From Naegleria gruberi (lineage: Eukaryota), in NCBI GenBank assembly GCA_000004985.1, contig GG738877.1: a DNA stretch of 64,000 nt, one strand, 5' to 3'. Shown in pieces: positions 20,594 to 33,995 of this stretch. How positions within the stretch are numbered: position 1 is the first letter of the stretch; every line of letters begins with the position of its first letter. The notes under the pieces are model-generated. The model was not told the origin of the DNA. It saw only the letters and a list, made by a program, of their open reading frames with translations, and did no database searches. Made by a program: the position numbers and the translations under genes.

Positions 20594-23232
20594 ATGAATG
20601 AAAACAAAATTTCCCTCCCACACATACAATTTTCATTCCCTGAGCTCTCATCATCGATAGCTCCATCTGTTTCTGAAGTATCACTAACAGAAATCCAAAA
20701 GAATGCTCAGGTATGTAATTTTTAAAATCGTTTTGTATTAAGAATTGTATTATAAATCATACATGATTAAAATATAGAAAAAAGGACAATTATTGGAGAG
20801 GTATCTAGTGGATGAAAATTTAGGAGAAGTCGAACGAGCTGTTCTTCTTCTTTCATCAGGTACTTCTGTACAAAAATGTTCCGTACTCGAAAATCTTCCC
20901 TCTCTTTTTCAAAGACAACAACAAGCTGTTTCGCGAATAATACTTCTCTTTTCTGTAGGTTTTTAGTTGCGATTATTGCTTAATGTTTGTAATAGGATAA
21001 AATCAACAAAGAGGATGAGGATACACAAATTATGATTGGAGATTATCTTGTTCCTTGCTTTCCTTTGATGTCTGGAGAAAATTTGAAAGAGCTGTTCCCT
21101 CTTCTCCAATCAATGATTAATAACGCTAAGGATCATGTATCTTCTGTTTTTCAAGATGTTTTAATTCTTGCAGTAGAACATATCCCTATTGGGTTATTGG
21201 AAAATGAAATCATACCTTTTGCTATTCAGAAGGGTAGTCTCTCGGAGTCTGAACAGAATAGATGTTTTTGTGTCAGATTGTTTGGAGCCTTGTCCAAGAG
21301 GTTTACATTCCAAACAATTAAGGATCATTATCTCCAAAAAATCATTGATTTATGTCAAGATACATCCTTCTCTGTGAGGAAAACAATGGCCATAGAGATT
21401 CTAAATATTTCTAAAGGGCTGGGGTAAGTTTATTTACATGCTTTTGTTATTTATTGTAATTTATTCCAGACCAGAGAAAACAAAACAATACTTGTTATTA
21501 GAACTTATTCAATTAGTTAAGGACGAGACAAAATTAGTGAGACAAGCTGCTATAGAAACACTAACCAGCCTGTTAAGCTTTTTTGATGAAAAATATAGAA
21601 TTGATTACCTTCAAAAGTTCTACATCAACTGGATTAAATCACCACCAAGTGACCTCTACAGAACATTGGTTGAGCGTTTTGGAGAAATTTTCTTCTACTT
21701 GTGTTTCAAAGATGAAGGTCATCTCTCTTATCTTATTCAGTTCTTTGTGAACGCTTCAAAAGATAACTCACAAGAAATACGAGAATTTTGTGCATTCAAC
21801 TTTCCTGCTGTTGTGAAATGTGTAGGGTCCAAAAGATACGAGAAACAGCTTCATAACTGTTTGGTAGTGTTATGTGAGGATCCTTCGTCTCAAGTTAGAA
21901 TAAGGATTGCCTCTGGATTTCATGAAATTTTAAAGTTGTTAGCAGAGGATGGAACAGCAAAAGTACTGAAGAATTTATTCTTCTCTTTGCTTTCTGTAAG
22001 TAATCTTAAAATGGAAATGTTGTAACCTTAAAAGGATGTGAACAATGAGGTCAAGGACAAGATTGTACAAAACCTTACAACTATTTTAACATGCTTCAAG
22101 ACTGCTCTTGCTAAAACATCAGAACCATTTTTTGGTTTAGTAATCACTCACATCAACAAGTATCATAGTGGTGTTCAAAACAACTGGAGAAGATTGGAAA
22201 ACTACTTTTCTCACTTCCAACACTTCCACAAATACTTTTCTAAGGAACAAATCATTGAGACATTTATTCCAATTTTGAGGAAACAAATATTTGAAGGAGT
22301 TGCCATTCCAGTTAAACTTCAAGCAGCTTTATCTCTTGTTATTTTGACAAGAGGATTACATAACTTGAGCAGACAAAAGGACATTTTCAACTCATTGATT
22401 AAGGAGTTGGTAAACAGCAAATCATGGTGTAACAGAATGATGTTTTTCGATTTATGTCACCCTATTATGGAACATTTCAGTAGAAAATTCTCAAAAGAAA
22501 TACTGTTTGAAAATGTTATGAAATTGGAAAAGGATAAAATTGCAAATGTTAGGAGAAGATTTTGTTTCATGCTCCCAGAGCTAAAACAAACTTTGACATT
22601 GCCAGATGATGTTATTTTATTAGCAAAAATTAAGGAAAAACTTTCGTATTTGAGTTTGGATAAGGATCGAGATGTTAAAGAAGCAGCTGTCTCGGCTAAA
22701 AACATTCTCTCAATGATTGAAACGGAAACAAACAGAGGTTTTAGACTTAATCTTCAAACACAAGATGATATCAATGATAAACGAAAGGAAAGAGAGGAAC
22801 AAGAATGGCCAGATAAGGACTTCCTAATGACCTCACCTGTTCCAGTTATCAACTCAGCAAACAACTCCCCTCCTTCGACAACAAGTGGTCCAAGAAAAAG
22901 ACCACCTGCAACAACAAGCAATTCCAAAACAAATTTGAATATTCCAACTACATCAACTACAAAAACCAAATCTCCTAGTCCTTCTCCAACACCTTCTAAT
23001 CCTGTCAAACCAACAACTAACAAGACTGTTTCCACAGTAACAATTCCAACAACCACAACACCAAAACCAACGTAAGTTTTCAAATATTCAATTTTACTTA
23101 TTAATGAACAGAGTTACAAAACCTCTCCTGAAAGACTCCTCAAAACCCAAAAGCAAATCATCCCCAACACTCGCAACATTGGGCTCATTGTCTTCAGTAA
23201 GAACTACCTCCTCTCAATCCAAGCACCAATAA
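20594..23232 (+). CDS. HEAT-repeat protein of the PP2A A-subunit / PPP4R4 type (phosphatase scaffold-like), with a C-terminal S/T/P-rich mucin-like tail. At least 5 exons.
   Basis: Exon 1 is 20594-20710, followed by an intron at 20711-20777. Exon 2 is 20778 to about 20955, followed by an intron at 20956-20996. Exon 3 is 20997-21423, followed by a 46-nt intron at 21424-21469. Exon 4 is 21470-21995, followed by a 39-nt intron at 21996-22034. Exon 5 is 22035 to about 23075. A possible final 40-nt intron at 23071-23110 would move the stop to 23232. Recurrent HEAT signatures are present (VRQAAIETL, VRIRIASGF, VRRRFCFMLPEL). Confidence 0.6.
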
Positions 23233-23281: not shown

Positions 23282-25765
23282 ATGCCAGCACAAGAAAAGA
23301 AGAAAGTATCCGTCATCCAACAAGCACTTACCAGTGATCGGAAAATAAAGATTGATGATCAGGTAGGACAAAAAAGAATGGACATGTTGAAGCAACATTT
23401 GAATCCAGTGCTAACAACACCAACTCCACAACAGAAAAAAGAAGCAAAAGATACCAAACCACCAACTGTTGCTCCAACAAAATCTTCTGAAAAAGTTGCT
23501 GTCAAACCATCCGAAACATTTCCTTTCAATGAATTTTCAAAATTTATTTCACCATTCACCCCAAAGGAGGAAAAATCATACTTAAGAGTGATTCAAGCAA
23601 TGAAAGACAGACCCGACCTCTTTGCTGCACCTGATTTGGACATGCCAAGAATTGAACAAATGGATTATAATTATGAGAGAGTAGGTTTAAATATAATATA
23701 TAATTTAAATAGTTTATCATGAAAATGCAAATTCAAATGGGTGAATATTTTAGTTGAAATATCTAGTATTGGAAAAGAGATGTTTTTCAATTGAGACATT
23801 GGAACACGATACTGCATCATTTTTTGCTGGAGTCTTTGCTGCTGCATATTTTGATCAAGCCTTATCAACCAAAATTATGCTCCAGGTAATTATCAATGTT
23901 AATTAAATTACTGACTCGGAATAGTTTAGTTTTTGGGGAGGTACTTTATTAAGTCTTGGTACTCAAAGACATAGAAAATATTTGGAAAAAATTGACAACT
24001 TAGAATTGATGGGAAGTTAGTATGTTTTATTTCGAGTGTTTGTAATTTTCTAATAATTTTAGTGCTATTACTGAGCTTGCACACGGATCTAATGTTAAAG
24101 GAATTCAAACAACAGCTACTTATTGTAAAGAAACTGATACATTTGAAATTAACACTCCAAATAGAGAATCATGCAAATTTTGGATTGGAAACTCTAGACA
24201 TTGTCATATGTGTTTAGTATTTGCTCAACTTTATGTTGGTAATGAAAATCATGGTGTTCATTGCCTTGTAGTTCCTGTTAGAAATCCAAGCACTAATGAA
24301 ATTTATGATGGTGTAACCATTGGTGATTGTACTGTTAAGGAGGGTTTGAATAATCTCGATAACGGATTCCTTATGTTTAACAAAGTTCATGTCCCAAGAG
24401 AAAACTTGTTAAACAAGTATGGTGATGTTACACCAGAAGGTTTATATGTTAGTGAAATCAAGTCAGCCAACCAAAGATTTGGATCAATGATGTCAACTTT
24501 AACAATGGGAAGAACAACCATTTGCGTCAACTCTGCCCAAGTCCTTTCCAAAGTTTTATGTAGGTATTAGGTATTACTTTTTTATTAACCCATTTTCAGT
24601 TTTAACTTTAGGATTTTCATTTGAAAGAAGACAATTCGGTATCCCTAATCAATCAGAATATCCAGTAATTAATTTTCAATCACAAAAAACTGTATTATAT
24701 CCAATGTTGGCCAAATTCTTTGCATTTAGATTTGCCTCCAATCAAGTATTCCACTTGTACGTGAATCGTACTCCTGAAACAACTCAAAAGCTTCACATAA
24801 TGAGCGCTGGTTATAAGGCATATCTGACTGATTCCACTCAAACATGTATTGTCAAGTTGAGAGAAAAGTGTGGTGGCTTGGGCTATTCAAATCTTAATAG
24901 AATTGGACAAGCTATTTGTAATCACGATATTTACAAGACTTTTGAAGGTGATAATACTGTTCTATTGGTAAGTTTTCAATATATTCTTTTATTTTAACAT
25001 TATAAATAGCAAGAAGTATCCAAATATCTCCTTGGTAATTATAACAAGGTAATGGGCGAGAAATACTCAAGCGTTTTCTCCTCAGTTGGTTATTACTTAT
25101 TAGACTCCTTGAATGATAATGTAAAATCAAGACAATTGAAAAACTCAACCAATTTGCTTGATCCAAACTTTTACTTGTCATTATTCGACGTCAAACTTGA
25201 AAAGCAAGTTCAATCTGCTGCTCTCAGATTTAGAAATATTCTAAATGAACTCAATCTTTCCACTAAAGATAATATTCCAAAGGAGCAAAAGAAGGCACTC
25301 AATCATTTCAATGCCTGGAATATGGTACAAAATCAATTGTTGGATGCAGCAACAGCCTACATTGAAAATGAACTTTTAGCATTATTCCACAGCAAAGTTG
25401 AGGAATGCAAGAATCCAACAATCAAGAAGGTTTTAACCAAACAACTCAATTTATTCGTTGTTGATTTATTGGAAAAGAATATGACATACTTTTTAACTCA
25501 TCAATTAATTACACCAGAAGTTGGAAAACAATTGGTCAAGGAGAAATCCAAGCTTATTGACTCAATTGATTATGTTGAACTTTTGAATATTGTTAAGGCA
25601 GTTATCGATCAAGACTCAATCCCTGTCCCAATTTGTAATAATGAAGGATTAGTCAGTGGTAAAGTATCATCTGATCCATCTCCAATCTACTCTTCCATGC
25701 TCAAGGCTGCTCTCTCCAATAAGCAATTATTTGGTAATGCTTCTGCTGAAAAACTTGGTCTTTAA
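23282..25765 (+). CDS. Acyl-CoA oxidase (peroxisomal ACOX family). Multi-exon gene with at least 6 exons and a roughly 100-aa K/P/T-rich N-terminal extension.
   Basis: Exons at about 24062-24570, 24612-24968 and 25011-25765 carry the conserved blocks TELAHGSNVKGIQTTATY, KFWIGN, HGVHCLVVPVR and FEGDNTVLL, plus the ACOX C-terminal helical domain. The first exon is 23282 to about 23688. One or two short exons between 23700 and 24060 are not fully resolved. Confidence 0.8.
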
Positions 25766-25817: not shown

Positions 25818-28800
25818 TTAATATAAAAACTCATAAGAAAGATAAAGCTTTCCTTTAACTTTTTCAATTTCCTTTGGCTTCTTTTGGATTAGCAGATTTG
25901 GTTTGAGTGGATATGAAACCTCTGTACCATCAACAATGTCCTTCATATTTACAGACACTAATCCCATATAATTATCTTTTGAAATAGATTCCTTATCGTA
26001 CATATGGAATGCCAAAACTCTTGTGTCAGCTTTAATATCTCCAATCAATTTTCTAATAGATTTGATTAATTAAATAACAAAAAATAACAAACATACATCA
26101 TGAAACTTTGATTCCACACAGGATTCAAACATTTCTTAATTGGATCTGTAATAAATAAACTTGTTTTCTTCTTATTGACTTCTTTCTTTCCATCATCAAA
26201 TTTGGCTACAACATATGGATCAGAACTATATTGTGATTAGTAATTTGATTATTTGAAATACTTACTGTTTGTCATTATTGTGAGCAGGTAGATCTACTGC
26301 CTTAATAATCTTGACCATTAAATGCTTTGGTGGTTCAGGAAGCAAACAATTAAAGTCTTGCATATTTACCTTGCATAATGCTTGTGAATTAATCATTCTC
26401 GTACCAACATCCTTCATAACAGACAATACTGACAAGACATCTCCAACCTTTGCCCATCCACATTTGGAAGGATCAATTACTACTCTAAACTTTTCACCTC
26501 CAACAATTTGATCAAAATATTTCAAAACAATTATTTCACCAGGTGGAGGAACTGCAGTCAACTCAAAATTAATAACAATACCAAGCATTTGTGTTTGAAT
26601 ATCATAATCCTTATAACTAACTTCAAATCTAGAATTTTCACCTGCATAAGTAAATCTCTTTTGACTTGTAATAATTTCAACACAAAGCGGATTACCATAT
26701 CTACAATTTTGTTCAGTCAATTCAATTGCACTATTGACTGTCAAAACCTGAAGCTTTGGTTTGTATTGAATCTTTGATGCTTCAACTGCCATAACAGAAG
26801 TGACAATATCCTTATAGATATCATCAACAAATGGTGTAGAAACTGTTTCTTTTGGTGCTAAAACTCTGGCAGCAGGTCTCAAACGAATATAATCAGATAA
26901 CATTTCCTTTCTGATCTTTTCAATCCAGTTGGTTTCTCTGTTAAAATCTGCTCTCAATGGCACTACTTTCCACAAATCTGATTTGATATCTACCTTCTCC
27001 AATTTAATCATGAGCATATCAGTTTCGAATGATGGTTTAATCACTGTTTTGTCCTTAATCTTTTTGAGAGCTTCCTGTTGATCATTCAAACTCAAATCTT
27101 GAACAGTGACAGCAAATAAATCTTGATTCTTCTCCTCATCGTAAACAATAAAACGATGAGTTTCATCAACAATGGAATTAATAAATCCTTGAGAAAGTGT
27201 TCTTGGTCTAGTTTCATCCTCAAAATCACAATCATAATATGGTTTTGGTTCACCTCTGATAGTTGTTTCAGGTAATCTCAATGAAATTTTGATGAACAAT
27301 GTCTTGAGAGATGGGAAATTAGCAACCTGATCCTTCAACGCAAGTTCAAAGGCAGTATTATACTTATTTTTTGCCTGTTTGGCAGTTTCATGGTATACAT
27401 GATAGCCATACTTATCAAAATAACATAAATCCATTGTAATGAATGGTTTCTTTGAGAGTTTACGTGTGAATCCTTCATCTTCATCATCGTCATCATTCTC
27501 CACAAGATATGGAGCCAATCTTTTACCTAATCTCAATTTAACATGCAATGGTTTTTGAGTAGAAAATTCAACTGTTGTACTCATATTAGCAGAGGCATTG
27601 GAAAGGAGTGGACAAGTATCAACAGTATCAATTAGAGGAGAGACAACTGGCATATGTCTGACAGCATACTTGTAAGCACCCAAGTGACCAGACTGATCAG
27701 TGTACTGATCCATGTTATAGAGCTCCCATCTATGAGGACCATTATTCACTCTTGGCAATCTCTTTAAAACACCCCAAATCAAACAGCATTCAGTACCTGG
27801 AGAAGCAAAAAGAGAAGAAACAAGTTCCTTCTTTTCATTGTAAACTTTCATAACACTATCTCTAACTCTGATGAAATTAGTTTCAGAATTACCTTGGAAA
27901 ACTGAAACGAATAAAATCTTATCAATTCCATCAGGAACATGATTCAAATCAACAGAGAATGTACAATCAGATTTTGAATGAGTCTTTCCAACAATGACTG
28001 GTTTTTCACATGCTGGATTGAAAATAGGTTCTCCAATATGATTCATTACATAATTACCCTTATCCAAACAAGCTGCTTTTGAACTAATACTAAACTTTTT
28101 ACCAACCAAAGTATGTGAAATTTCAAAGTAAAAGTATTTAACTCCACTATTATGATGAGTTCCTTCCAAAACAACTGAATTATTCTTCTTTAATTCAAAG
28201 TATTTGTATGGTGAATGAACTAAATCATCATTTTGAGTTGGGAAAACATCTAAATTCAATTAAAAATATCAATTAATGAATCATTTGAATAATTGGAGAA
28301 CATACTTTTAGGAATTTGATCATGAATCAATCCTGTTTTGTAACATTCCATAATTGAACTTGTTTGATTTCCCAAATTCAATCCCAAAGGAGTAAATTGA
28401 CAAGTTTGTGAAGTGCTATCCATCCACAACATACTTGATAAGTAAATAACACGATTATTCTTAAATTTTGTAAGAGTGTTATATGAAAATGTGAATTTGC
28501 AATCTGATTTGAATTCTGTCTTGACATTCTTAGGTACATTATCACCATAAACATATTTTCCCCATTCAACAATTAAATTTGATTGAGGGCTGATAGCTTT
28601 ACTCAAATCACCTTCAACAAAAAAGATAAAACACTTTGCTTTACCTCTATATGTCTTTAGTGGATCGGATAAAGTTGCTCCAATATCAAATTCTTCATCA
28701 TCCATTGCTTGTTGTTTAAAAACTTCCATTTCATGAGCCACATCTAATTTACTTGCATTGAATGCTTCAATATAATTCATTCCTTTCAATGATTGTTTAT

Positions 28801-29380
28801 GAAAGTCTTTGAGAAATAGTTTAAATGGAACATCAAGTAATTCTTTTGGATTTGTAAATAATTGAGAGAGTGTTGGTTTGATGAGAAAGGATTGACTATA
28901 TTCTCCATCATTTTCTGTATGATTAGATGATTTCAATGATATGGTTTTGTGATAATTTGATAATTGATAAAGAGGTCCACTATGATCATCAAATATAACT
29001 ATTCAATTTTGAGAGTTTAGAATAAATATTTAGTTAGTCACACCATTCAACAGTTTAGAATGTGGTTGATTTTGTTGATATTTCATACAATATATAGTAA
29101 TAATAATATTATTTAATCATGTTGATGATGAAATGTTGTTTTTTGTAGACAGGTGATGAAATATTTGAATGTTTGTTCGTTAAAATTTCAATTATTATGA
29201 TGCAAGCACATTAAACAACATACCATCTGTTACAAAACCCAATTCATTCAATTGGATACATCCAAATCTAACATGTTCATTCTTTGGTGTGTTATTCTTA
29301 CTGAAGGTAAATTGAATTTCCAAAGCATCATTAGGAGGGAGAGCAACTGATGATGAATTGCTATCACCGAGGTGAGACAT
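25818..29380 (-). CDS. About 1030-aa multi-exon protein with beta-rich N-terminal and central regions and a C-terminal C2 domain. Function unknown.
   Basis: Exon 1 is 29380 to about 29222 (ATG at 29380), followed by an intron of about 215 nt. Exon 2 is about 29003 to 28306. A 56-nt phase-1 intron at 28305-28250 joins track ORFs 28256-28936 and 26262-28259. The next exon is 28249-26266, followed by a 40-nt intron at 26265-26226. The C2 domain (SDPYVVAKFDDGKKEVNKKKTSLFITDPIKKCLNPVWNQSF...) is split by one further intron before the final exon 26048-25818. Confidence 0.6.
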
Positions 29381-29615: not shown

Positions 29616-30131
29616 TTATTTACTTTTAATTGATTTTTCACAGACAGCCATTGCTTCATGAAGGGTTTTAAATGTTGGAAAACCACATGCCAATGCATGG
29701 AGAGCGTAGGACCACTGAACGGAGGCATCTCTCACCTCCATTGCATTGTATTCCTTCTCCATCTTGTTGAAAAACTTTTCAATCTGAACATAACAAACAA
29801 TAGACTCGATAACATGAAGGGAAATAGCAATGTACCAAATCCAGACCAAATAGATCTGCTGGCTAGCCAATACGGAGAAGAGAGAAGGTAATATTGGGAA
29901 TTGATTCAAGTCGTGATGAAAGGCAACAATCGTATGAAAAATCATTCCAAACACCAAGAGTAAACACAATGGAATTTGACCAAAATTAAATTGTAAGGTT
30001 ACTGATGGTTGTATCGATGCGGATGATGAAGATGTTATAACATCTGGAGTGTTCGATTTGTTCATTGTTGTGGATGAAGAAGTTGATGGTTTAATCTTCT
30101 TCTCATCACTCACGTCTTCAAATCTAACCAT
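29616..30131 (-). CDS. 171-aa small membrane protein with 2-3 predicted TM helices and an S/T-rich N-terminus. Uncharacterised.
   Basis: Intronless ORF with ATG at 30131. Hydrophobic segments are IPLCLLLVFGMIFHTIVAF and IYLVWIWYIAISLHVIESIV. It fits neatly in the gap between two genes. Confidence 0.4.
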   Translation of the reverse strand: MVRFEDVSDEKKIKPSTSSSTTMNKSNTPDVITSSSSASIQPSVTLQFNFGQIPLCLLLVFGMIFHTIVAFHHDLNQFPILPSLFSVLASQQIYLVWIWYIAISLHVIESIVCYVQIEKFFNKMEKEYNAMEVRDASVQWSYALHALACGFPTFKTLHEAMAVCEKSIKSK

Positions 30132-30213: not shown

Positions 30214-32250
30214 TTATTTATTCATGTAGGTGTTGACTTGTTCTGTGATGGAATTCAAATCTAAGCCTAATAGGGTGGCAATTTTCTGACCGATATCAGT
30301 ATTTTCTTGATTTCCATTGAAGAGAGTTGAAGAAGGTCCATAACTGTAAACATTCACATCGACTGCAGTGTGACCACGAGTGGTAAATCCAATTCTAGCT
30401 CTTCTATTAATGACTTCATCAATGGCAAATAAGAATGGTGTTCTAATTGTTTGCATAATGTTAAATTCATCCATTGTAAGATCTGGAATACCATATGTAT
30501 TCAAAATTGAGGCAACTTGAGCAAAGTCAGTAGTGTTAGTAATTTTAGAGGCAATATATTCAGTTGACTTGGTAACTGCTCTAATCTTTTCAGTGTAGAA
30601 AATATATTGGTTAACATAATCGACATCTCTATTAATTGTTACACCTCCAGTTTCATGATCAGCAGTTGAAACAACTAAGGTATCTGGATTTTCCTTAATA
30701 TAATCCATTACATATTGGAATGCTTCATTATATTCGGTAACTTCTTGCCACTGACAGGAAATATCATTGGCATGGGCACTTTATGAATTATTAGTAAATA
30801 TTGAGAGTTGAATAACATACCAATGGTCAATTCTTGATCCTTCGACCATGAGGAAGAAACCACGATTCTTTTCAGTGCTTTCCTTTGTAATAAGTTGGAG
30901 TGCCTTCTTGGTCATTTCTGTAAGAGTTGGTTCCTTTTCAATTTCTTCATCATCTCTATCAATATTACTATTAATTTCCAACTTTTAATGAGAAAAGAAA
31001 TCATTAAATAACACATACTATTTCATTTCTTCCAAAGCAAATAATCCAAGAATTGGTAATTTTTCAATCTTGCTCAATTCATTTCTATTTTCAACATATT
31101 GATATCCAAGATCTTTGGCTGTCTATGAAAATTATTAAATTATTTAAAGATTTTTGAAAACTCACAGAAATGACGTCTGTTGAATCTTTTCTTTGACTTC
31201 CATCTGATTCCTTTGGTAAAAAGTATGCTCTGCCACCTCCCATCAATAAATCAACACCATATTTCTTAGTAGAGGTTCCAAAAATGTCAGATAACTGTTT
31301 AATTTGTTGGAAGGCAATGGTATCTTGTTTGTTTCTATGATCAACGTGTGCAGAAAATGCAGCTGGAGTAGCATCTGTCACAGGATTAGTAGCTACAAGT
31401 CCAGTAACCATTCCCTTCTTAATAGCAGCTTCCAACAATGTTCCACATCTAATTCCAATTCAATTCCAATTGATCAAATCAATAAACTTACGGTTTCTTA
31501 TTCTTATCAACTCCAATTGCATTATTGTAGGTCTTTTGTGCACATGAGAATGCAGTTGCTCCAGCAGCACTATTCAATCATTTCAATAAGAAGAAGATTC
31601 AATAAATATCCACAGAATTTTTCCACAATACACACATGAGCATTAGTAGGTCTATACTTACCTATCAGTGACATCAGAGGAGGATGAGTAAGTTTTTGAA
31701 GACCCAACCAAATACTTGTCCAATGCAAGTGTTGTGATTTTAGATGCTGAATTCTTCATCATGTATCGAGCAAAACTTTGGGCAGCAGGACCGAAACCAT
31801 CTGATAGTAGAATAAATTAATAGTATTGTGATGGATAATGAAAAAGTAGTTAGTACTAACCTCCAATCATGACTATCAGATAAATAGATAGTATTATTAT
31901 AATTATTATTGAAAATGATCATTAAACAGTTCAATCACAATGAATTATCATTATTCACAAACTTACAAATAATATTCCTTGGTTTTTGAGTAGTGTCAAC
32001 AGATGATCCCGATTTAAATTGTAGACCAATAAGAACAATATTCAAACTATTTGTATCAATTAACAATTAATGGATCAATTAGAGAATATAATGATTGTGG
32101 ATAATACATACATTATGGACAAGACAAGAATTGTGACAGAACCAATCAACCAATAGATGAGGAAACTTCTCTTTGGTGAGGAGGTCATGCCAGAATTCGA
32201 TCCATCTCTGTGATGATGGTCACTGTGATCTAACTCGTCACTGTACATTT
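30214..32250 (-). CDS. Alkaline phosphatase with an N-terminal signal anchor (type II membrane topology). Multi-exon gene with about 8 exons.
   Basis: N-terminus MYSDELDHSDHHHRDGSNSG-MTSSPKRSFLIYWLIGSVTILVLSIM with ATG at 32250. Conserved AP blocks GLVATNPVTDATPAAFSAHV, FLMVEGSRIDH|AHAND (split by a 41-nt intron), STADHETGG and GHTAVDVNVYSYG lie in successive minus-strand exons at 31091-31438, 30781-30981 and 30214-30779. Further 5' exons are at 31440-32250. Introns are 40-100 nt. Confidence 0.8.
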
Positions 32251-32423: not shown

Positions 32424-33995
32424 TTAAGGACGAGAGCATCCATATCCAGATAGATTTTCTTCAATGTGCATTTGGAGTTTCATTCTTTCATTTCTTCTAA
32501 TAATTATAAAGAGCGCACATAACAATGGAATAAGAGTGGAACACAACACCCCACTCAAAACAGCAAATAAAATAGTTAAAGTATTACTGTTAACAAATGG
32601 CATGGCGTCAGCAAACTCCAAAGATGGAGTGAGTGTTATAATACAGGTATCATACTGGGGATTTTCTACAAGAATATAGCACCATATTGATCTAAGTTCA
32701 TCATTGTTATAGTAACCAGAAGACACAAACACTTTAGAATAATGTTGGTTACTTGGAATAGTATCTGTTGCAAGATAAATTGGCAATCCATCTGTTAGTA
32801 ATGTTGTGTCAGGAAAATTAACTTGTATCAATAGCCTGTATCCTCTTGGAATAAGTATTTTGAAAGCCTTTGATCCACCTTTAGATAAGTTAATCCTTTC
32901 AGCAGTGTTTCCTTCTAATAAGGCTGGAATCATTGAAGAGGAAATAGTAGGAATGTAGGCTGACTTGACTGCTATAAACATGTCATGATCGACATTGTAT
33001 TCTTGATTGAATAGACATGTCAAGGAGGTTGTTTCATCATTAAATCGTGATTCAAGTTGGTGAATCTTTCCTTCTATAAGGAACATGCATGTAAGTGACT
33101 CAAACGACATCTCAATTAAGTTGTTGCTTATATCGAAATCATATTTCGCTCTATTGAATCCAATATCAATTGTTGCTTCTGTCAAATTCAGAGGTTGGTT
33201 GAATAATGAAACTTGGAATCTTGCTAAAATGTAATAGCCCTCTGGTATGTCGCTATATGATACATAGTATCTACCAACAGATATAAAGGGAGATAAGGTT
33301 GGCGCAACGTAAGCAGCCTTTGGGAAGGTATATAATACAGATTTGATATTGTTGGTACACATAAAAGAAATGCTTCTTGGGTAGTGTATCGAAACAGATC
33401 TATCAAACTTAACGTTTTGTACGTCTTTAAATACAAATACTCCAAATATGAAGGAGTCATAAAGATCAATAGTGGTTGTGAAACGAGTTCCTTTCTGTGA
33501 AAAAGTCCCAGGATATTTACATGAATTATCTTGTGCATTATAGAGAGCTATCCAATACGAATACGGATCCAAGTTGAAGAAGGTGGGAACATGTGACTCC
33601 ACACCAATTTCCAAGCTTAAAGAATTCTGATTGAGATCGATCTGAGTCAAGTTTAATGAATAGAAAGCTATTTCACGGAAGGGTTTAGGGAGGATAGGAA
33701 GTGTACACTTTGATTTTAAGGAAATCTGATTCAGTGATATGTTTCCTTTCAGCATTGAATTGTCGGGAAGTGAAAAAAGGAGAGAAAACTTTAAACTATT
33801 AAAATCATATCTGACTGGCATCTCCCTACTTAAAGGATAAGATTTTTCCATATAGGTATCTTTAAATGTACAACTTGTTGCTTCTTGACCTGCAACAATA
33901 AGGCTTATTGAATAAATAACAAACTGTAGAAAGAGTAGTATGGAAAAACAACCTCCAGACTTCCCTTTAAGTGATGAAGAAGGAGTGAAGGCCAT
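32424..33995 (-). CDS. 523-aa type I membrane glycoprotein: signal peptide, about 440-aa N-glycosylated ectodomain, one C-terminal TM helix and a short basic tail. Lineage-specific, function unknown.
   Basis: Intronless ORF with ATG at 33995. Signal-like segment is ILLFLQFVIYSISLIVAG. There are many N-x-S/T sites. C-terminal TM is LTILFAVLSGVLCSTLIPLLCALFIII, followed by RRNERMK. Confidence 0.5.
   Translation of the reverse strand: MAFTPSSSLKGKSGGCFSILLFLQFVIYSISLIVAGQEATSCTFKDTYMEKSYPLSREMPVRYDFNSLKFSLLFSLPDNSMLKGNISLNQISLKSKCTLPILPKPFREIAFYSLNLTQIDLNQNSLSLEIGVESHVPTFFNLDPYSYWIALYNAQDNSCKYPGTFSQKGTRFTTTIDLYDSFIFGVFVFKDVQNVKFDRSVSIHYPRSISFMCTNNIKSVLYTFPKAAYVAPTLSPFISVGRYYVSYSDIPEGYYILARFQVSLFNQPLNLTEATIDIGFNRAKYDFDISNNLIEMSFESLTCMFLIEGKIHQLESRFNDETTSLTCLFNQEYNVDHDMFIAVKSAYIPTISSSMIPALLEGNTAERINLSKGGSKAFKILIPRGYRLLIQVNFPDTTLLTDGLPIYLATDTIPSNQHYSKVFVSSGYYNNDELRSIWCYILVENPQYDTCIITLTPSLEFADAMPFVNSNTLTILFAVLSGVLCSTLIPLLCALFIIIRRNERMKLQMHIEENLSGYGCSRP

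Follow-up and report, generated by a model that had tools for sequence, protein, structure and literature searches.

A Naegleria gruberi gene encoding a large protein with a TerD-like domain and a C-terminal C2 domain

The gene discussed here lies at positions 25818-29380, on the minus strand, of a 64,000-nucleotide stretch of DNA from Naegleria gruberi (contig GG738877.1 of assembly GCA_000004985.1; the whole stretch is referred to as the window). It is a single real, intact and conserved gene. Its product ends in a C2 domain and contains, further upstream, a β-sandwich domain resembling bacterial TerD; it is an uncharacterised, lineage-specific protein that joins known domain types in a new combination, and not a new kind of system. 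Because its parts are known domain types, it leaves current concepts unchallenged. No description of a fusion between a TerD-like domain and a C2 domain was found in the literature searched or among the database hits.

Gene structure

The spliced open reading frame (ORF) comprises 3198 nt, from the ATG at 29380 to the TAA at 25820-25818, and the predicted product has a mass of 122 kDa and an isoelectric point (pI) of 7.1. The exons, introns and domains are collected in Table 1. An earlier interpretation of this DNA, made from the letters alone and without database searches (the sequence-only reading), gave the same bounds and strand, and the peptides that it quoted are correct; its introns of 56 and 40 nt correspond exactly to introns 2 and 3. 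Its count of six exons has to be reduced to five, and its estimate of about 1030 residues raised to 1065. All four splice junctions are crossed gap-free in a three-way alignment with the orthologues from N. lovaniensis (XP_044549533) and N. fowleri (XP_044557449), and this alignment leaves no window-specific insert that could mark the boundary of a sixth exon. In the N. lovaniensis orthologue, exon 1 likewise ends after residue 52.

Table 1. Features of the locus and positions in the window
Feature	Position	Strand	Description
Whole gene, ATG to stop	25818..29380	-	5 exons, 1065 codons + TAA; aligns over its full length with N. lovaniensis, N. fowleri and Willaertia magna
Exon 1	29224..29380	-	Residues 1-52 and first base of codon 53; orthologues keep the MS.. 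start and the GFVTD/V junction
Intron 1	28999..29223	-	225 nt, GTATGT..AG
Exon 2	28306..28998	-	Residues 53-284; helical segment, then β-rich segment
Intron 2	28250..28305	-	56 nt, GTATGT..AG
Exon 3	26266..28249	-	Residues 284-945
Intron 3	26226..26265	-	40 nt, GTAAGT..AG; within the C2 domain
Exon 4	26097..26225	-	SDPYVVAKFDDGKKEVNKKKT...; encodes part of the C2 domain
Intron 4	26053..26096	-	44 nt, GTATGT..AG
Exon 5	25818..26052	-	C-terminal part of the C2 domain and stop codon
TerD-like β-sandwich domain	27651..28217	-	Residues ~295-483; acidic Ca2+ loop of TerD deleted
β-rich region without detectable family	26343..27650	-	Residues 484-919; may hold a further TerD-like sandwich
C2 domain	25821..26342	-	Residues 920-1065; coordinates span introns 3 and 4; Pfam PF00168, solved C2 structures
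Upstream neighbours (alkaline phosphatase, TMEM254-like)	29616-30131, 30214-30708	-	Counterparts: L003 1-4690, L002 4407-4952

In principle, a protein of this length could be an artefact of ORF joining, the locus in truth comprising more than one gene or a pseudogene in decay. Database searches returned no N. gruberi protein for the locus, and the annotation of Willaertia magna has the equivalent locus as three gene calls of 181, 262 and 617 residues. Against this, each of the four introns has the canonical GT..AG boundaries and leaves the frame intact, and both orthologues are single models (1081 residues in N. lovaniensis, 1082 in N. fowleri) that are collinear over every junction. Their identity to the window protein, 57% at 100% coverage, is evenly distributed from end to end, an argument for purifying selection. 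The adjacent Willaertia calls (JBEGDK010000097; KAL9649141 and the calls flanking it; L002 5357-8829, plus strand) are only 38 nt apart and are jointly collinear with residues 13-1065, at 26-38% identity; the trio makes up a single full-length orthologue whose annotation has been split at short introns. A division of the locus into several genes, or its decay, is therefore extremely improbable.

The exact spliced product is also absent from a collection of 15 billion proteins, which contains only prokaryote-style ORF fragments from metagenomes (P0009, P0011 and P0012, the last being the ORF of exon 2). The gene may be missing from the reference annotation, or modelled differently there. The finding corrects the annotation in two places: in N. 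gruberi, for which no model could be retrieved at this locus, and in Willaertia, where the orthologue is split into three genes.

Intron 1 is four to five times as long as the other three introns (40-56 nt), and the equivalent intron in N. lovaniensis measures ~430 nt. Scans of the window for Rfam families and tRNAs, intron 1 included, gave no match.

The C-terminal C2 domain

The identity of the C-terminal domain is certain. Pfam PF00168 matches residues 926-1032 with an E value of 3.7e-18 and a score of 66.1 bits (cut-off 22), and it is also above the cut-off in the orthologues, in a paralogue from N. lovaniensis (XP_044552975) and in the Willaertia protein. Among solved C2 structures, those of synaptotagmin-7, -3 and -1, dysferlin, NEDD4 and PKC match by sequence, with E values down to 1.6e-14; the closest are the C2A and C2B domains of synaptotagmin. 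The sequence-only reading regarded a C2 domain at the C-terminus of a large protein as unusual. In itself it is not: C-terminal C2 domains occur in RIM, E-Syt, class II PI3K and Munc13.

Two properties of the domain bear on membrane binding, namely its charge and a lysine-rich strand. The pI of the domain is 9.2. Its segment GKKEVNKKKT pairs in the alignment with GKRLKKKKT, the polybasic strand in C2B of synaptotagmin-1, and so by sequence it carries the KKKK/KKKT motif (β3-β4) of the C2 subclass that binds phosphatidylinositol 4,5-bisphosphate (PI(4,5)P2). Across five family members (the window protein, both orthologues, the paralogue and the Willaertia protein) this strand reads KKKT, KKKT, KKKT, AKKN and IKKT, with at least KK in all. 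The polybasic strand of synaptotagmin binds PI(4,5)P2 without the need for Ca2+. From the conservation of the strand, the basic pI and this analogy, we infer that the domain would bind acidic membranes electrostatically, with a dependence on Ca2+ that is at most weak and not conserved.

The residues available for Ca2+ binding also differ between members of the family. At the positions of the synaptotagmin-1 C2A ligands D172, D178, D230, D232 and D238, the window protein has N, D, D, E and N. Only three of the five positions are thus acidic, whereas the Ca2+-dependent C2 subclass has five acidic ligands. In the five-member alignment, the equivalents of D178, D230 and D232 are K, S and K in the N. 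lovaniensis paralogue, and D, G and K in Willaertia. The paralogue has lost both the SDPY motif and the acidic residues of loop 3. As the ligands decay in the paralogue and in Willaertia, a Ca2+ switch is not a conserved property of the family. The lysine-rich strand is preserved better than these ligands. The domain had been described as a clear Ca2+/lipid-binding C2 domain; the C2 assignment holds, while the Ca2+ part was overstated.

These residues are central to an alternative reading, that of a Ca2+ sensor of the synaptotagmin or copine type, in which a rise in Ca2+ would drive the C2 domain onto membranes, possibly together with the TerD-like domain. The similarity of the C2 domain to Ca2+-binding synaptotagmin domains speaks for it, as do the D, D and E retained in SDPY and the YDKE loop by the three Naegleria orthologues (N. 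gruberi, N. lovaniensis and N. fowleri), and the binding of Ca2+ by bacterial TerD (according to the title of PDB entry 2KXT). However, Asn occupies two of the five canonical ligand positions, the Asp of loop 1 being missing; most ligands are gone from the paralogue and from the Willaertia orthologue, although both retain the remainder of the protein; and the Ca2+ loop of TerD is deleted. A Ca2+ sensor is therefore rather unlikely.

The TerD-like domain

The assignment of a TerD fold to residues ~295-483 is sound. Pfam TerD (PF02342) matches residues 376-432 at 19.5 bits (E 7e-4), below the gathering score of 25.3. In the other four members (both orthologues, the paralogue and the reconstructed Willaertia protein) the match lies in the equivalent place and scores 20.4-24.3 bits, in all cases sub-threshold. 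When a five-member profile of residues 285-483 was compared with all PDB sequences, the only credible matches were TerD proteins (3IBZ, E 6.4e-5; 2KXT, E 0.003), in accordance with a TerD β-sandwich.

The domain differs from bacterial TerD, TerE and TerZ (PF02342; 2QZ7, 2KXT, 3IBZ) in several respects. Its identity to solved TerD is 12-13%, and it is embedded in a 1065-residue eukaryotic protein without a ter operon: none of the ter genes (terZABCDEF) occurs near the locus, which has an acyl-CoA oxidase exon, a TMEM254-like ORF and alkaline phosphatase around it. When aligned by hmmsearch, the acidic Ca2+ loop of TerD, GDNxTGEGxGDDE, falls on a gap of 6-8 residues with K/T/S/D on its flanks (..vktdsks......ditf..). 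The domain thus has the TerD fold but lacks the metal site known from TerD. Since it scores below the Pfam threshold and lacks ter-operon context, it is called TerD-like here and is not counted as a member of the TerD family.

The sequence-only reading had seen a weak resemblance to TerD/CAP-like folds in two segments. One of these, CTFSVDLNHVPDGIDKILFVSVFQG, does lie inside the TerD-like domain; for the other, RVIYLSSMLWMDSTS (residues ~235-249), sequence support is lacking.

TerD domains are viewed as ligand-binding sensor modules (PMC7824862), and the cAMP-binding proteins CapA and CapB (CABP1) of Dictyostelium contain a TerD-derived half (PMC3188802). Like the window protein, CapA and CapB are eukaryotic cytosolic proteins; they are much smaller, have no C2 domain and belong to another supergroup (Amoebozoa). 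This background, the TerD fold itself and the possible presence of a second TerD-like sandwich favour a small-molecule sensor, in which one or more TerD-like modules would bind a metabolite (nucleotide or cAMP-like) and the C2 domain would place the signal at the membrane. The low identity to solved TerD and the absence of Ter-system genes nearby count against it; the ligand-binding residues of TerD, against which the domain would have to be compared, are not defined, and an exhaustive HMMER search (described below) gave no sequence link to CapA or CapB. A sensor of this kind is very unlikely.

Remaining N-terminal and central regions

Outside these two domains, the protein is predicted to be rich in β-structure. 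The model of residues 1-294 has β-strands, with values of 70-85 in the predicted local distance difference test (pLDDT), broken by a poorly predicted helical segment. That of residues 484-919 is also β-rich and is of poor quality (pLDDT 49.8). Secondary structure assigned to the models by DSSP supports the earlier description of the upstream ~900 residues as β-rich.

Searches for further families gave little. For some of them, the exon translations and the N. lovaniensis orthologue served as queries in place of the spliced protein. Pfam searches with four slices, at E values up to 10, returned nothing except TerD and C2, and a PDB profile search with residues 481-915 found no relationship. Neither the Pfam nor the PDB profile searches of the protein detected a catalytic family. 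The earlier statement that kinase, phosphatase, GAP and copine modules are absent agrees with the Pfam results, where C2 and the sub-threshold TerD are the only matches; the gene model, the orthologues and Pfam together bear out a single large non-enzymatic protein with one C-terminal C2 domain. A Foldseek search of the PDB with the low-confidence model of the C-terminal half gave no significant match.

A second TerD-like sandwich in the rest of the protein is possible but unproven. A bolder version of this idea is that most of the 900-residue N-terminal region consists of three or four TerD-fold sandwiches in tandem, all of them extremely diverged and no longer binding Ca2+, and fused to a C2 anchor. 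If true, the array would be a eukaryotic membrane-associated sensor or scaffold without a described counterpart. In heteroloboseans it might relay the signal of a small molecule to a site on a membrane. It is quite improbable. BLAST on slices, and hhalign with profiles of 3-5 sequences, found no significant similarity between segments; the best internal match covers 15 residues (KTEFKSDCKFTFSYN versus KTHSKSDCTFSVDLN) at E 0.1, which is not significant.

A signal peptide and a transmembrane segment are both absent from the protein; the maximum Kyte-Doolittle value over 19 residues is 1.39. A secreted protein or adhesin was considered and rejected on these grounds, C2 being a cytosolic domain type.

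Relatives and distribution

The N. lovaniensis and N. fowleri orthologues are the only close relatives in the databases, where they are annotated as hypothetical 'C2 domain-containing protein'. They have the same domain order and the same upstream neighbours as the window gene; the TerD-like domain is not annotated in them.

Statements on distribution rest on an exhaustive HMMER search, in which a profile of the 900 N-terminal positions was run against 1.84 billion representative proteins. There were only four matches: the N. lovaniensis paralogue (P0006; 1054 residues, E 6e-235); a fragment from a metagenome that corresponds to exon 2; the 262-residue Willaertia magna protein; and the exon-1 ORF of the window itself. 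A word-index protein search was lossy, missing the paralogue and once even P0001, and absence from its results is weak evidence.

The paralogue is ~40% identical to the window protein in the N-terminal region. Both it and the Willaertia locus have the full-length architecture, including a sub-threshold TerD match placed as in the window protein and a terminal C2 domain; they differ from the window protein in the loss of most Ca2+ ligands from this C2 domain. The existence of the paralogue implies that each Naegleria genome has at least two family members, whose C2 domains differ in their chemistry.

By the exhaustive search, the family is confined to Naegleria and Willaertia, in keeping with the lineage-specific character proposed in the sequence-only reading. 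Its advice to look for orthologues in Amoebozoa was off target: N. gruberi belongs to Heterolobosea, within Discoba. A relationship to kinetoplastid FAZ28/FAZ30 was a literature lead only, and the exhaustive HMMER search showed no sequence link.

Possible function

The preferred interpretation, whose chances we put at about even, is that the protein is a cytosolic, non-catalytic scaffold of β-sandwich modules, which the C2 domain at its C-terminus would attach to acidic membranes. The sequence-only reading had likewise suggested a scaffold for membrane recruitment, a reasonable proposal. In this scheme the basic C2 domain would tether the protein to membranes with acidic phospholipids, mainly through the conserved lysine-rich KKKT strand, and Ca2+ dependence of tethering would be weak or absent. 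The N-terminal 900 residues would form a rigid platform, binding partner proteins or a small ligand at the membrane, and this platform would include the TerD-like module that has lost the Ca2+ loop of TerD. The same modular order has been retained over the divergence of Naegleria and Willaertia.

The proposed principle, a C2 domain anchoring a larger protein to acidic membranes, is shared with synaptotagmin, E-Syt and copine. In contrast to these proteins, the window protein has a single C2 domain with an incomplete Ca2+ site, and is devoid of a transmembrane anchor, an SMP domain and a vWA domain.

Several points weigh against such a scaffold. About 700 residues are without an assigned fold, with models at pLDDT 50 and 62, and may harbour an unrecognised activity. 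The D, D and E, together with two Asn, in the Ca2+ loops of the window protein and its orthologues could allow weak Ca2+ binding, and the case for a lipid-binding KKKT strand is an analogy with synaptotagmin. Moreover, a C2 domain may serve to contact other proteins rather than membranes. Literature searches with the orthologue accessions found nothing on any member of the family.

The protein adds a defined, uncharacterised family to the small set of eukaryotic proteins with a TerD fold. The range of this family takes in the brain-eating amoeba N. fowleri, and its restriction to Naegleria and Willaertia means that it might be used as a lineage-specific marker, or as a way into membrane biology specific to these amoebae.

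Genomic neighbourhood

N. gruberi and N. lovaniensis share the gene order alkaline phosphatase, TMEM254-like small membrane protein and then the C2 gene. Willaertia, too, has the TMEM254-like neighbour (tblastn E 9e-8).

On the other side, a C-terminal exon of acyl-CoA oxidase (25052-25765, plus strand; Pfam ACOX E 3e-15) is convergent with the C2 gene and ends 52 nt from its stop codon; with this spacing, the 3' untranslated regions of the two genes would abut or overlap. Two ORFs with HEAT repeats (21438-22025 and 22038-23075, both on the plus strand; Pfam HEAT E 7e-12) probably belong, as exons, to a single larger gene that lies upstream of the one for acyl-CoA oxidase.

The G+C content of the window, 33%, fits N. 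gruberi. The species is identified by a single-exon ORF of 523 residues at 32424-33995 (minus strand), whose product matches XP_002675643.1 of N. gruberi (NAEGRDRAFT_69294, 'predicted protein') without a difference; this ORF has no Pfam domain.

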